64,000 nt of DNA from Octopus vulgaris (GCA_951406725.2 OX597821.1:98518001-98582000); one strand, 5' to 3'; shown: positions 917-60,162, counted from the stretch's first letter. Notes: generated by a model not told the origin, from the sequence alone. Made by a program: numbers and translations.

Positions 917-967
917 TTTGTCAAAATATTTTCATTGCTATAAGACTGCGACCTGTTCACTGACAAA
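917..967 (-). ncRNA. Minimal type I hammerhead ribozyme, G3-C8 core variant (stem II partly decayed)
   Basis: Minus strand: tttgtca GTGAACA g gtcgc-agtcttata-gcaat GAAA atat TT tgacaaa. Confidence 0.55.
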
Positions 968-1496
968 AATCCGTGCTGCATATATACAATATATTTGTAT
1001 AAACATACTCACCTACATATACATACATATGAACACACTTATACACACACACACACACATATACATGCACACACACACATACATTCCTATATACATACAT
1101 AGACTTTAAGCTTTTTTGATTTTTGAAATTATTTCATTATTGTTTTTTTAAACATAAAAACATAAATTGAGCATTTGGATAAATTCCAGTTTGCAGAAAT
1201 TCTGCAGTGAGTTTATTAATACTTGCCATTCCACTTTGAAATAATACCTACATTATAACTTTTTTAATACCTATGCTATGAACCCAGCCTCCGCTCCAAC
1301 TCTCTAAAACTATCAACCACCAACCACTGTTCCACATAAAACTCATTAATTTATATATCTTCATCATTCACATGTAAAGGGATATGCACTAGAGTGTGGG
1401 GGGGGGGGGTTGTTCCAAGGAAAAGTTTATCCAGCTGTGTATGTGTACGTGTGTGTGTGTGTGTGTGTGTGTGTATCCATATTTCATTCTATAACA

Positions 1497-1582
1497 GCTA
1501 CCTCTGAAGAGCACAGGGTCACATAATCAGACCATTACCTAACACTCGAACCCCTAGTGCGAAACCGGTTGGTAAGATCAGC
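1497..1582 (+). ncRNA. Type I hammerhead ribozyme motif (family B); degenerate second copy at about 4183-4266
   Basis: CTGAAGA 1504-1510, stem II gcac.aggg/ccct.a.gtgc, GAAA 1561-1564, stem III acc-ggtt-ggt, GUA site at 1572-1574, imperfect stem I (gctacct/agatcagc). Confidence 0.7.
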
Positions 1583-1825
1583 CATAATGGATATGTAATA
1601 CTGTACACTTCAATTAATATATATATATATATATATATATATACATATATCACATGATCACATGTGATCATTTCGATATATGTGAGCAGGCCAACATTCC
1701 CCACTGATCGAAATGAGCTGTTTTACTCAAGAACTCAACATGCCGCCCAGTCAAAGAATTGAACCCACAATCTAATGATTGTGAGTGCAACAGCCTAACC
1801 ACTAGGCCACACACTTTCACAGACA

Positions 1826-2092
1826 CATGTATATACATATATATATATATATATATATATGTATGTGTATATATATATATATATATATATATATATGTAT
1901 GTATGTATATATATGTATGTATGTATATATATGTATGTATGTATATATATATATGTATATATATATATATATATATATATATATATATATATACACATGT
2001 GTGTGTGTATGTGTGTGTGTGTGTGTATGTGTGTGTGTGTGTGTGTGTGTGTGTGTGTGTGTGTGTGTGTGTGTATGTGTGTGTGTGTGTAT
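1826..2092. repeat. Compound (TA)n/(TATG)n/(TG)n microsatellite; similar tracts occur throughout (e.g. 3009-3098, 4338-4456, 14532-14782, 19899-20198, 40010-40325, 41850-42300)
   Basis: Directly visible. These tracts produce the YIYI/VCVC/HTHT pseudo-ORFs. Confidence 0.98.
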
Positions 2093-3680
2093 TCATTATC
2101 AACATCATCGGCCTAATCAGCATTGTTTGCAGTCCATCTCCCATGCTGGAATGAATTGTTGAGGTATGATAGGATCAGGTGGGCTCAGGGATTGCACCAA
2201 GCTCTAGTGTATGCTTTGACATGGATTCTAGAGCTGAACACCCTTTCTACTGCCAACCACTTTATCGAATGTAATGCTTTTTTGTGGCATCAACACTACT
2301 GAGGTCACCATAAAGGTCACAAGACTAAGATTCCCTCTGATTATTACAGTAGAAGAAATGGTCTATGCTAGTACATGAGAGATTAAAGTATGAAAGAAGG
2401 GGCAAATATAAGGAAGAACAAGGGTGGAATGGTTGATGATAAATACATGAAGAGAAGGTAGGGAAGCATACATGATAATTGTTGAGATTGAGCTGAGATG
2501 TGGACTAGAGTGAAGGGGCGATTGATAGTATACATGAGTTGAGGGAAAGCAGAGGAGATTAGGTGATGACTGACAGTAAAGAAGAGGGTGAAGAGTAGTA
2601 GAGTAGTAATAATAATATAGTAGCCAAGAGAAGACTGAGAGATGGAGAAGATATGCAGATGAGTAGGTTGCATAAGAGTGAGAGGGAAAACATACATGGA
2701 GAGTGGAGAGAGTGAGAGCTATATAGGAATTGTGAAAAAGATAGTTTGGTAACACAAAAGGGTGATCTGTGTAAAATGTGAGGGAGAAAGATAATATTGA
2801 GAATAAGGTATGATTAATGAATGAAGTGGTTTCAAGAACTGAGAAACATCAGGTACCACAGAACAAGATGATGAAATATGCAGGTCTGCTATCATTTAAT
2901 TACAGCTGCAGAATACTGCAGTTAAGAAGGTAATAGAAGGAATTATGATAGAGATAATGAGTTTAGGTGAAGGCTTGAGGAAGAAACTGGCCAAGGGGCA
3001 CAGTTAGGTATATATATATATATATATATATATATATATATATATATATATATATATATATATATATATATATATATATATATATATATATATATATAAT
3101 GTCTCTATAAGAAGCATAGGGCTGGTTTCTCAGTTTCTCTGGGATACCAATCCATTGCAAGCTTACTCAGCTGAGTGGATTGGAGCAATGTGAAATGAAA
3201 TCTTTTGCTCAAGATCACAAAGCATCGCCCAGTGCAGGAATGAAAACCACAGTCTTGTGTTCATGAGTTTGACACCCTAACCATTAAGCCATGCATCTCT
3301 GTGGATTGCTGTTAAAAAAATTCTCCAGTGTCAGCATGTTGTGGTGGAATCTGAGGGTAGGATGACAGTGTCTGGCAAAGGTTCTATAGTATGTACAGCA
3401 ATAACCTTTCAGAATTTGAGGGGTGTGGTAGATGGTTGAAAGATTATGCACTGGGCACATATATTTATATGTACACACACACACACATGGAGTACCCAAA
3501 CATCTACCTAAAATCAGAAGTGAGATTCTTTAGCCCTTGCCCACATGAGTGATGGTATATTTTATCCTACTTATGGCTATAACCACCAGTTCTCCACCAG
3601 ATCCGGAGAACCCAGTAAAGTGTTTAACCAACTGTACACAAATGAACATGGGACACATATGCTGCACAATATGGTCTTAA

Positions 3681-57095: not shown

Positions 57096-58185
57096 ATTGT
57101 TGTTTGACTATTTCAAACAACATCACTTAGGAAACATTCTCAAAGTACATTTAGTAAAAGGAAGATAGAAGAAACAAGTCTACCAACATTTTATGGTCTC
57201 TCTTAGGTATACTGTATATTGTAAAATGATGGATAGCAATAATAATGATAGTAGGAAAAACCCAGTAATAAATGTAATGTGAGTAACCTGGAAGAATAGG
57301 GGTGATGGCTAGCAGTACGTAAGAGTGATGGTAGGGAATAGTGAATAGAAAGAAAGACAATGCTAGCCCTCATTACACAGGTGTTGTGATGGAAGAGAGG
57401 TAGTACAAAAGGCAGTGAGTATGAACATATCTGATGTCATTCTTTGTAACACAAGGCAGCGTGGTACAGTGACGAGAAGGTAATAAAAGAAGGTGTAGGA
57501 AACTCAACAAGAGCATACTGGGTAAGAGACCTAAATGTGTGCCGGTGGCACGTAAAAAGCACCATCCGATTGTGGCTGTTTGCCAGCCTCGCCTGGCCCC
57601 CGTGCCGGTGGCATGTAAAAAGCACCATCCAATCGTGGCCGTTTGCCAGCCTCGTCTGGCACCTGTGCCGATGGCATGTAAAAAGCACCCACTACACTCA
57701 CGGAGTGGTTGGCGTTAGGAAGGGCATCCAGCTGTAGAAACGTTGCCAGATCAGACTGGGCCTGGTGCAGCCTTCTGGCTTCCCAGACCCCAGTTAAACC
57801 GTCCAACCCATGCTAGCATGGAAAGCGGACGTTAAACGATTATGATGATGATGATGATTGCACTGCCCTGTCTCCATAGCTACCACCCTTTTAGTGTATT
57901 TTGCAATGTTTGCATAGGTGGGTTGATTGACCTTCTCCAGCACATACCCCACCACTCGTCATAGGTTTTGCCATCTCCGTTCTGAGATTCAACACCTTGG
58001 GATCACTCCTTACCACTTCATACCATGCTTAGGTGTCCCTCTTCTACAGGTTCCATCCACTGTGAGTGCTCAGTACTGCTGTAAGCAACTGGCATCCTCT
58101 ATTCAAATCAGATACCCATTTTCTCTCATGCACACTACATCTGAAACCTCTTAAATGCAACTTTGGTCTTCTTCTCTCTGTTTCA

Positions 58186-58654
58186 TATGTATGTATGTAT
58201 GTATGTATGTATGTATGTATGTATGTATGTATGTATGTATGTATGTATGTATGTATGTATGTATGTATGTATGTATGTATGTATGTATGTATGTATGTAT
58301 GTATGTATGTATGTATGTATGTATGTATGTATGTATGTATGTATGTATGTATGTATGTATGTATGTATGTATGTATGTATGTATGTATGTATGTATGTAT
58401 GTATGTATGTATGTATGTATGTATGTATGTATGTATGTATGTATGTATGTATGTATGTATGTATGTATGTATGTATGTATGTATGTATGTATGTATGTAT
58501 GTATGTATGTATGTATGTATGTATGTATGTATGTATGTATGTATGTATGTATGTATGTATGTATGTATGTATGTATGTATGTATGTATGTATGTATGTAT
58601 GTATGTATGTATGTATGTATGTATGTATGTATGTATGTATGTATGTATGTATGT
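58186..58654. repeat. ~470-bp essentially perfect (TATG)n array
   Basis: Directly visible. Confidence 0.99.
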
Positions 58655-58848
58655 AATGGGAACGTTTACGAAAATAAACAAAAGACGAAGGCAGGTGGAG
58701 TACAAACAAACAAATGTATTAGTATAGTGGTCAGGAATAGAAATAGAACAAGTCTTTTATGTTTCGAGCCTACGCTCTTCGACAGAAAGATACACAGAAA
58801 AGAAACAAGGAGAGAAAAAAATGCGTGTAGGAGCTAACGATCTATCAT
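58655..58848 (-). mobile_element. Short Penelope-like remnant with ultra-minimal HHR-like motif at 58753-58790
   Basis: Minus strand: tcttt CTGTCGA a gagc-gtag-gctc GAAA ca T A aaaga. Confidence 0.5.
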
Positions 58849-60100
58849 GTGTGTGTGTATGTGTGTATGAATGTATGTATGTACGTACATACGTATGTAT
58901 CAATCATCATCATCATCATAAAGACTACTTTTCCATGCTTGCATGGGTCAGATGGGACTGTGTTGGAACAGATGCTCTTCCTGGCACCAACCTTCACCTC
59001 TTTCCAAGCAAGGTAGTGATCCTCCAGTTTATTGAACAACAAATCACTTGACATTGTTACATGGAGGACTGAAACAAATTACACTATTTGAATGTGCTTT
59101 TTCAGTTTCCTAGATCACGCAAAATGTGTATCCATGGATGTGTGTATACATACATACATAAATACACACACAGACAGACTGACAGATAGATAATGGTATC
59201 ACACAAACTGGCACCTGTGACAGTGACATGTAAAAGCACCCATTTTACTTGTAGTGGTTGGCACTGTGATAATCTCCATGGCAACCTTACATATATAATA
59301 ATAGCAAAATTGTTCAGCCCTTATCAGTGGTTGGCATTAGGAAGGGCATCCAGCCAGAGAAAACCATACCAAATCAGACTGATTTGGTATGCCAGCCTGG
59401 TCAAACCATCCAACACATGCCAACATAGACAACGGACATTAAATGATGATGATGTGTATATATATATATATATATATATATATTGTATATACAGTATAAT
59501 GCATAATACATTATATATATATATATATATATATATATAGACGCAGGCATTGCTGTGTGGTAAGAATCTTGCTTCCCTTCCACACGGTTCCATGTTCAGT
59601 CCCACTGTGTGGCACTTTGGGCAAGTGTCTTTTACTATAGCCTCAGGCCAACCAAAGCCTTGTGAGTGGATTTGGTAGATGGAAACTAAAAGAAGCCCGT
59701 CATATATATATATATATATGTGTATATGTATATGTTTATATCTGTGTGTGTTTTTGTCCCTCCATCACCACTTGACAACCAGTGTTGGTGTGTTTACATC
59801 CCTGTAACTTAGTGGTTTAGCAAAACAGCCCAATAGAATAAGTACTAGACTTTAAAAGTTAAGCCCTGGGGGTCGATTTGTTCAATTAAAACCTTTTGAG
59901 GTGGTGCTCCAGTATGACCACAGTTAAATGACTGAAACAAGTAAAAAGAATATATATATATATATATATATAAATAATTTACAAGATAAGGGCAGAAGAA
60001 AAATTCTAATGCCAAATATGCCGAAACAAAAAATTGTCGATAACCATTATAATTTATGCGTCTCGAAACAAACCGATAGAAATCTCTAAAAAATTCGTTA

Positions 60101-60162
60101 TTACCGTATTGGTCCAATTTTGGGGTTAATTCATAAGAAAATTTTCCCCTCTTCAGCGGCAA
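60101..60162 (-). ncRNA. Type I hammerhead motif (family J) with G12->A CpG-type decay, in an element at about 59975-60240
   Basis: Minus strand: ttgccg CTGAAGA gggg...cccc AAA Attg-gac-caaT A cggtaa. Confidence 0.7.

Follow-up and report, generated by a model that had tools for sequence, protein, structure and literature searches.

Why does a single 64,000-nucleotide (nt) stretch of the Octopus vulgaris genome hold 16 hammerhead ribozyme motifs, and do they still cut? The stretch analyzed here, called the window (G000:C8:98518001-98582000, in a genome of 2.8 Gb in 227 contigs), is AT-rich and crowded with microsatellites and short repeats. A first-pass annotation had read the motifs as a multi-family radiation of hammerhead retroelements. 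We conclude that they are very probably the 3' terminal repeat hammerheads of several clades of Penelope-like elements (PLEs), stranded by premature stops of copying in short copies that are likely inert. Judged by sequence comparison, the new part is a fixed U6 in an intact, very young, high-copy element, together with a fixed G3-C8 pair in another family. More tentatively, and with somewhat less than even confidence, we propose that a prolific young retrotransposon has fixed a CUGUNGA core that should not cut and has kept it through subfamily replacements with the rest of the fold conserved. U6 would then be either a new catalytic variant, rescued by dimerization or an element protein, or a non-cutting structural signal.

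All 16 motifs occur where the annotation had placed them and form type I hammerhead folds on paper. Against dinucleotide-shuffled sequence, the control that the annotation had proposed, a strict type I descriptor (CUGANGA, stem II of at least 4, GAAA, UH, and stem I of at least 3) returned 5 matches, compared with a mean of 0.03 and a maximum of 1 in 60 block-wise shuffles. Allowing one mismatch with a palindromic stem III gave 6 matches scoring at least 12 (shuffled, 0.03), and scored relaxed descriptors overall gave 6 against 0.03 to 0.6. Chance matches in AT-rich, repeat-rich DNA would account for one count, that of an unscored one-mismatch descriptor, which was non-discriminating (10 matches, close to the shuffle range with a mean of 4.05 and a maximum of 9). 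They are refuted as a general explanation, and left with a negligible probability, by the strict and scored counts far above shuffles, by genome patterns with 6,616 and 25,283 matches against none for reversed controls, and by covarying stems.

The density of hammerheads in the window is above average but not extreme. A variant-tolerant descriptor found 6 matches (4 insertions) in the 64 kb, where about 1.7 would be expected (shuffle mean, 0.15), and 12 matches in 39 evenly spaced 10-kb stretches (shuffle mean, 1.75). Coarse extrapolation to the genome gives ~26 matches per Mb, or roughly 70,000 in total. A single canonical sub-pattern had 4,042 genome matches with many stem II types, compared with 507 for its reversed control; together with the 6,616 and 25,283 matches above, this bears out the large population that the annotation had expected. 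Among the Rfam matches listed (150/306), no hammerhead family appeared, and microsatellite-driven microRNA matches dominated. Multi-family abundance is no surprise; it is the published state and ordinary PLE debris. From 2,000 to 9,000 minimal hammerheads in several families per genome are on record (PMC4209133), and a coral holds >6,000 in 16 families (PMC7229834).

The 16 motifs, named here by their first position, resolve into 12 insertions and 11 families. Four pairs (4491/5487, 7130/7177, 49004/49200, and 55619/55746) each make up the two arms of one inverted insertion, 917 and 29691 belong to the same family, and 11347 and 58753 are sister branches of a single lineage; "about 10 unrelated families" had thus been a fair estimate. 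The CUGANGA/GAAA/UH core, said to persist across families, does so in 8/16 copies (1497, 4491, 5487, 7130, 7177, 8745, 55619, and 55746) and is altered in the other eight. The cores of 917 and 29691 have G3/C8 plus an extra G, with a broken stem II in 917; 58753 has U6, 49004 has C4, and 49200 has C4 and A5. Core positions are lost in 11347 (G8 and G12), 60101 (G12), and 18264 (A13).

The anatomy of the insertions points to PLEs. Carriers stop at two fixed points 15 to 180 nt beyond the motif, in most cases at (TA)n. Each of the four inverted pairs has one arm that stops 15 to 50 nt beyond the motif and another that is ~70 to 140 nt longer, and incidental copies fall into the same two 3' end classes. 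Fixed 3' ends and a tailed arm match the PLE tail, with its two reverse transcriptase (RT) start sites (PMC11167929), and the inverted 5'-truncated partner described by Craig et al. (2021, 10.1101/2021.04.23.441226). The copies thus combine fixed 3' ends, an optional tail, variable 5' ends, an inverted partner, and an AT-rich target, as in insertions of endonuclease-bearing PLEs.

Coding sequence supports the PLE origin that the annotation had proposed: 3 of the 11 families (Neptune-, Nematis-, and Hydra-like) are joined to frames with an RT and a GIY-YIG-type endonuclease. The 58753 motif is the 3' end of a Neptune-like lineage with about 23,000 U6 copies, the longer of which extend upstream into a zinc finger and the C terminus of a GIY-YIG domain. 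From a protein search for this family (18,677 candidates, 150 scored), we took the 15 loci with the longest open frames, a choice that favors the youngest subfamily. The U6 core lies 3' of the frame in 15/15 and at both ends in 10, 4.45 to 4.57 kb apart; the locus L172 has three U6 motifs in tandem. Six of the loci have a frame that runs without a break from its initial Met across the endonuclease, and they are 99.3 to 99.8% alike over 2.9 kb; RVT_1 scores above the cutoff. Copies of the 917/29691 family begin at graded positions as far up as the coding region; of 14 long loci, 4 extend into remnants of an RT, a zinc finger, or a GIY-YIG domain, with the hammerhead at the 3' end only. Both families carry a linker CX2-5CxxC zinc finger before a C-terminal GIY-YIG domain, and from their endonuclease motifs we take 58753 to be Neptune-like and 917/29691 to be Nematis-like.

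In the 4491/5487 family, two canonical motifs spaced by 3,625 nt flank a DKT-type frame of 899 residues, and near-identical frames are common (about 20 among 116 listed). DKT in place of DKG, the C-terminal endonuclease, and the (TA)n target are Hydra features, whereas the unit of 3,625 nt exceeds the Hydra size of <3 kb and the CxCx5C linker is absent from the frame; we therefore file the family, on these motifs, as Hydra-like only. Both terminal repeats carry the hammerhead in this family and in that of 58753. The same holds for a family met outside the window, in which a U3-A8 motif lies in both repeats around a 781-residue RT-endonuclease frame and an upstream frame of about 350 residues; a U3-A8 motif adjoins 13 of 30 GIY-YIG loci.

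These observations suggest how the debris would arise. The PLE protein would nick AT-rich DNA and start copying just downstream of the hammerhead, as PLE biochemistry suggests (PMC11167929). Because copying would start there, an early stop would leave most insertions with the motif and without the gene. The template was presumably uncut at the copied motif, because copies run through the cut site. Cutting is also unlikely in solo and inverted copies, which lack the same-strand partner on which a palindromic stem III depends. In the master elements, the core has shifted to U6, G3-C8, U3-A8, and probably C4 in different families. Most likely, in our view, slow cutting that depends on a partner or a protein is enough for PLEs, and weakened cores would therefore be tolerated.

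Several results weigh against this account. For 8 of the 11 window families, no coding element was traced, and the G3-C8 family has no intact frame among 14 loci. The clade names rest on motifs rather than on a tree with named references. Covariation counts, given below, are inflated by related sequences. Finally, 5' ends cluster at about -57 (G3-C8), -79 (55746 family), and -90 to -100 (Neptune-like lineage), which could reflect dedicated short transcripts instead of truncation at random.

Some of the same results would fit self-standing, non-autonomous elements (retrozyme-like or resembling short interspersed elements), with RNAs of about 200 nt mobilized in trans by PLE proteins. Most G3-C8 copies begin within about 20 nt of stem I, none among the 14 loci is coding and intact, and a 2026 preprint derives animal retrozymes from PLE terminal repeats (10.64898/2026.07.22.740005). 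An array with a motif in each unit exists elsewhere in the genome (L099, G000:C2:17908100-17913000; 30 x 166 nt), although its unit, a G3-C8 hammerhead plus an AT-rich spacer, includes flank-like sequence, as local DNA expansion would. The 5' ends graded up to the coding region also speak against self-standing elements, as does the absence of head-to-tail arrays from the window (0/12 insertions), and we judge such elements unlikely. The units that the annotation had called retrozyme-like are better described as 3' fragments of longer PLEs, with one array met elsewhere. The layout of that array is itself retrozyme-like, and its units could form dimers if transcribed.

The fold itself is under selection in the master elements, as far as base-pair substitutions can tell. 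In 11 sequences of the 55619/55746 family, there are 21 compensatory cells in 7 of 13 pairs, a total reached in 0/500 shuffles (slid controls, 0 to 2), and 16 Hydra-like motifs have 7 in 5 of 18 pairs; both counts include related sequences and are inflated by them. The covariation that the annotation had asked about is thus present, and the compensatory changes span stem I, stem II, and the stem III palindromes. Palindromes are exchanged for other palindromes, as the dimer model predicts: ACAATTGT and ACGATCGT both occur within the 55619/55746 family, and ACACGTGT and ACATATGT within the Hydra-like family. The short, self-complementary stem III already recognized in the first-pass annotation is therefore kept by compensatory change.

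The unusual part of the locus, not singled out in that annotation, is its fixed core variants. For the G3-C8 family, one 18-mer has 6,616 exact genome matches and its reversed control none. With the core left free, the pattern had 1,088 matches; by hand count of the first 100, of which 8 are members of a single array, the core is identical in 93, G3 is present in 99 and C8 in 98, and C3-G8 is absent. In contigs of four runs from four organisms, no variant at these positions reached 5% among copies at least 80% alike, while loop II varies. Three Watson-Crick states of the 3-8 pair occur in this single genome. Among the papers found, C3G/G8C or G3-C8 hammerheads are engineered mutants only, in which C3G/G8C partly restores activity (PMC11167929; PMC8495972). 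The sequence pattern suggests that the G3-C8 family has been selected to cut, and a family-wide natural G3-C8 offers evolutionary support for the 3-8 base pair.

The U6 state is more difficult to reconcile with catalysis. A core-free pattern for this family had 25,283 genome matches (reversed control, 0), and a hand count of the first 100 gave 92 with U6, 6 with A6, and 2 with C6. Position 7 of the U6 copies is free (A, 27; C, 19; G, 12; U, 34). All 13 incidental BLAST copies have U6, with position 7 as the most variable core column. The A6 form of the 58753-lineage pattern totals 793, and the 3-nt-loop sister branch has A6 in 19/19 rows, a set collected by means of an A6 pattern. Within the 4-nt-loop branch, U6 is found in several subfamilies and in the youngest intact copies. 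After removal of 8 rows out of 63 (2 long branches, L065, and 5 A6 copies that nest in U6 subfamilies), the best tree needs two changes; a single origin is neither rejected (p-AU, 0.20) nor demonstrated. A register shift as the source of U6 was ruled out, since the A6 sister subfamilies align column for column.

Published mutagenesis predicts that a U6 core should be crippled in cutting. Pairwise mutagenesis of a type III hammerhead left all CUGA-region single and double mutants with low activity except for the G-C swap (PMC9901934). The hammerhead of the U6 lineage may therefore no longer cut, its fold serving as a non-catalytic signal such as a PLE-protein binding or pause site beside the copying start. 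The recurrence of U6 in several subfamilies and in the youngest intact copies fits such a role, as does published PLE insertion in vitro, which catalytic mutants leave unaffected and for which uncut RNA is the main template (PMC11167929). Copies also rarely begin at the cut site: 5' ends within 3 nt of it were seen in 0/21, 0/36, 0/7, 0/20, and 2/19 incidental copies, in small samples with approximate BLAST ends. Families with a canonical core likewise lack ends there, however. Moreover, C3, U4, G5, G8, A9, G12-A15.1, and U16.1 are conserved, variation falls on N7 and N17, and none of 13 incidental copies has G at N17; the overall pattern is that of a working ribozyme. A natural A6C variant also still cuts, at <0.1 per minute (PMC3088659). 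On balance, we consider a wholly non-cutting U6 hammerhead possible but doubtful, and we prefer a PLE hammerhead whose weakened core suffices for slow cutting.

A further core change, C4, is probably family-wide. Among 25 copies of the 49200 family, the letters are CTG in 10, CCA in 8, CCG in 4, and other in 3, from which we infer a C4 master that has undergone CpG decay. C also predominates at position 4 of the 11347 branch in four of four runs, with a reference bias towards C.

In the literature searched, where the match for A6U concerned the twister ribozyme, a natural G3-C8 or A6U is unreported, although the supplements of PMC4209133 and PMC3088659 may hold such variants; the accessible portions of PMC11014351 and PMC6155905 contain nothing on them. 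Natural U3-A8, A6C, and U4C are in print, some of them cutting slowly (Perreault et al. 2011, PMC3088659), but as rare cases, and the available text of that paper names neither A6U nor natural G3-C8. Octopus hammerheads were absent from our literature search results, and the main text of a 2026 octopus repeat annotation has no occurrence of "ribozyme" or "hammerhead" (PMC13282606).

Beyond their cores, the copies closely resemble known systems. With the minimal hammerheads of PLE pseudo-long terminal repeats (PMC4209133), they share the type I order, a short stem I, an extra base between 9 and 10.1, a palindromic stem III, natural U3-A8, and many families per genome, with motifs that are usually solo or lie 100 to 700 nt apart on opposite strands. 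The part of that text available to us names U3-A8 but not family-wide G3-C8, U6, or C4, nor any cephalopod, whereas here U6 occurs in intact young elements with about 23,000 copies. As in the Poseidon PLE of the green anole (Frangieh et al. 2024, PMC11167929), the 3' ends are fixed at two points beyond the hammerhead (the tail), with AT-rich targets, an uncut RNA template, and no reads ending at the cut site; C3G/G8C was an engineered partial rescue there and is a fixed natural state of 6,616 copies here. The Neptune, Nematis, and Hydra clades (Craig et al. 2021, 10.1101/2021.04.23.441226) likewise have a C-terminal GIY-YIG-type endonuclease and tandem or inverted insertions with a tail. They also have a linker zinc finger and DKG, as in our U6 and U3-A8 families, or DKT and (TA)n targets, as in 4491/5487. 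Unlike in those clades, the Hydra-like element here measures 3.6 kb and its long linker has no CxCx5C, and the U3-A8 family has its upstream frame. Animal non-LTR retrozymes (PMC7229834; Li et al. 2026) also carry a type I hammerhead in short non-coding repeats of likely PLE ancestry, but they form head-to-tail arrays and circular RNAs and are mostly canonical, whereas the window copies are solo or inverted.

For most window copies, the possibility raised in the first-pass annotation that they cleave any pre-mRNA transcribed across them is unlikely, because solo copies are likely inactive, native stems are predicted to be lost across inverted pairs, and 5' ends show no accumulation at the cut site. 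Published solo minimal hammerheads showed no cleavage in vitro, and dimers cut weakly (PMC4209133). Half of the window cores are altered. Folded in isolation, four of five motifs have a native stem I/II probability of 0.56 to 0.94 (55746, 0.0), which falls to 0.0 in 4/4 tests across the inverted partner. No host exon was detected, with 0 of 88 window frames scanned (243 candidates) matching Pfam, although an intron would go unseen in such a scan. That solo motifs are active in host transcripts is nevertheless favored by the eight canonical cores, by 8745, which is predicted to keep about half of its native stem pairing in a 650-nt context, and by the 7130/7177 and 60101 families, whose stems III of 4 to 5 bp could fold as monomers. 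We rate such activity as improbable; 8745, the 7130/7177 family, and intact 60101-type copies would be the best candidates for monomer activity.

The role of the hammerhead in endonuclease-bearing PLEs has been stated to be unclear (Craig et al. 2021, 10.1101/2021.04.23.441226), and it is dispensable for PLE insertion in vitro (PMC11167929). An intact young element with a predicted-dead core and A6 sister branches makes that role testable with wild sequences. If U6 is indeed fixed as proposed, its presence beside G3-C8, U3-A8, and C4 families would amount to a natural mutagenesis series on the purpose of the PLE hammerhead. Descriptors with a fixed CUGANGA miss the U6 and G3-C8 families, which are very large (about 30,000 copies together), and ribozyme censuses in such genomes therefore undercount.

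TABLE 1 Hammerhead motifs and partial copies in the window
Feature	Position	Strand	Remark
G3-C8 hammerhead, stem II partly broken	917..967	-	Nematis-like PLE 3' end copy, about 426-985; split by 322-nt insertion (536-857), 14-nt duplication at 522-535 / 858-871
Canonical-core hammerhead, weak stem I	1497..1582	+	Element stops at (TA)n, 34 nt past the motif; no parent element found for this family
Second 1497-family copy, 3' part	4258..4308	+	Absent from first-pass annotation
Canonical hammerhead, short arm	4491..4584	-	Ends 34 nt past motif; young Hydra-type PLE insertion, inverted, 573 nt, 99.1%
Canonical hammerhead, tailed arm of 4491/5487 insertion	5487..5580	+	
Back-to-back hammerheads	7130..7227 (7130-7180 minus, 7177-7227 plus)	.	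One fold-back insertion; stem III 4 bp; arms extend 15 and about 85 nt
Canonical hammerhead, solo	8745..8819	-	No relative among loci compared
Decayed copy, G8 and G12 lost	11347..11379	-	3-nt-loop A6 sister branch of 58753 family
Decayed solo hammerhead, A13 changed, palindrome ACGCGT	18264..18304	+	No relative among loci compared
Intact G3-C8 hammerhead	29691..29741	-	Extra G after A9, U17, palindrome AATATT; element about 29554-29745, partial inverted copy at 29742-29785
3' half, further hammerhead family	41935..41978	+	Between TA runs; absent from first-pass annotation
C4-core hammerhead, short arm of old inverted insertion	49004..49082	-	
Tailed arm of 49004/49200 insertion, decayed core (C4, A5)	49200..49267	+	
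Canonical hammerhead, tailed arm of inverted insertion	55619..55704	-	
Canonical hammerhead, short arm of 55619/55746 insertion	55746..55832	+	
U6-core minimal hammerhead	58753..58790	-	Extra A after A9; palindrome decayed to ACAT
Hammerhead, 5-bp stem III	60101..60162	-	G12 lost here, intact in relatives L042 and L092

Several further observations concern PLEs elsewhere in the genome. A full-length U3-A8 PLE (L091:460-5700, in G000:C16:20834500-20841500) has a TATA-like box and a possible 5' splice site upstream of its motif, which may be intronic. A second U3-A8 family (L205, L220, and L049), with the palindrome ACGCGT or ACATGT, had 3 matches per 390 kb of evenly spaced sequence. At L039, L042, L057, and L135, short hammerhead elements of other families lie just past or inside full-length PLEs, a nesting that suggests shared AT-rich targets. 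A 683-residue C2H2 zinc-finger array lies a few kb from a G3-C8 remnant (L184:4722-6770, minus strand; G000:C29 near 22.86 Mb).

The window also holds other repeats. One, at 13400-13590 (+), 46800-46950 (-), and 53600-54290 (inverted pair), is abundant (about 15 copies among the loci compared) and has a PLE-like inverted-pair layout. CUGANGA, variable at position 7, is retained together with a GAA farther downstream, but the A15.1-U16.1 pair and stem I are missing; the repeat is either a decayed hammerhead or another RNA fold. An inverted pair of a short repeat at 22826-22920 / 23160-23250 encloses unique sequence, and no hammerhead was seen in it. A broken RT remnant at 32990-33995 (+), with frames of 157 and 245 residues and no Pfam match, presumably derives from a non-LTR retrotransposon. 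By our assignment, further remnants of long interspersed elements and mariner-like elements lie at 7552-7878, 41165-41617, 43590-43961, 45656-46168, and 56726-57112.

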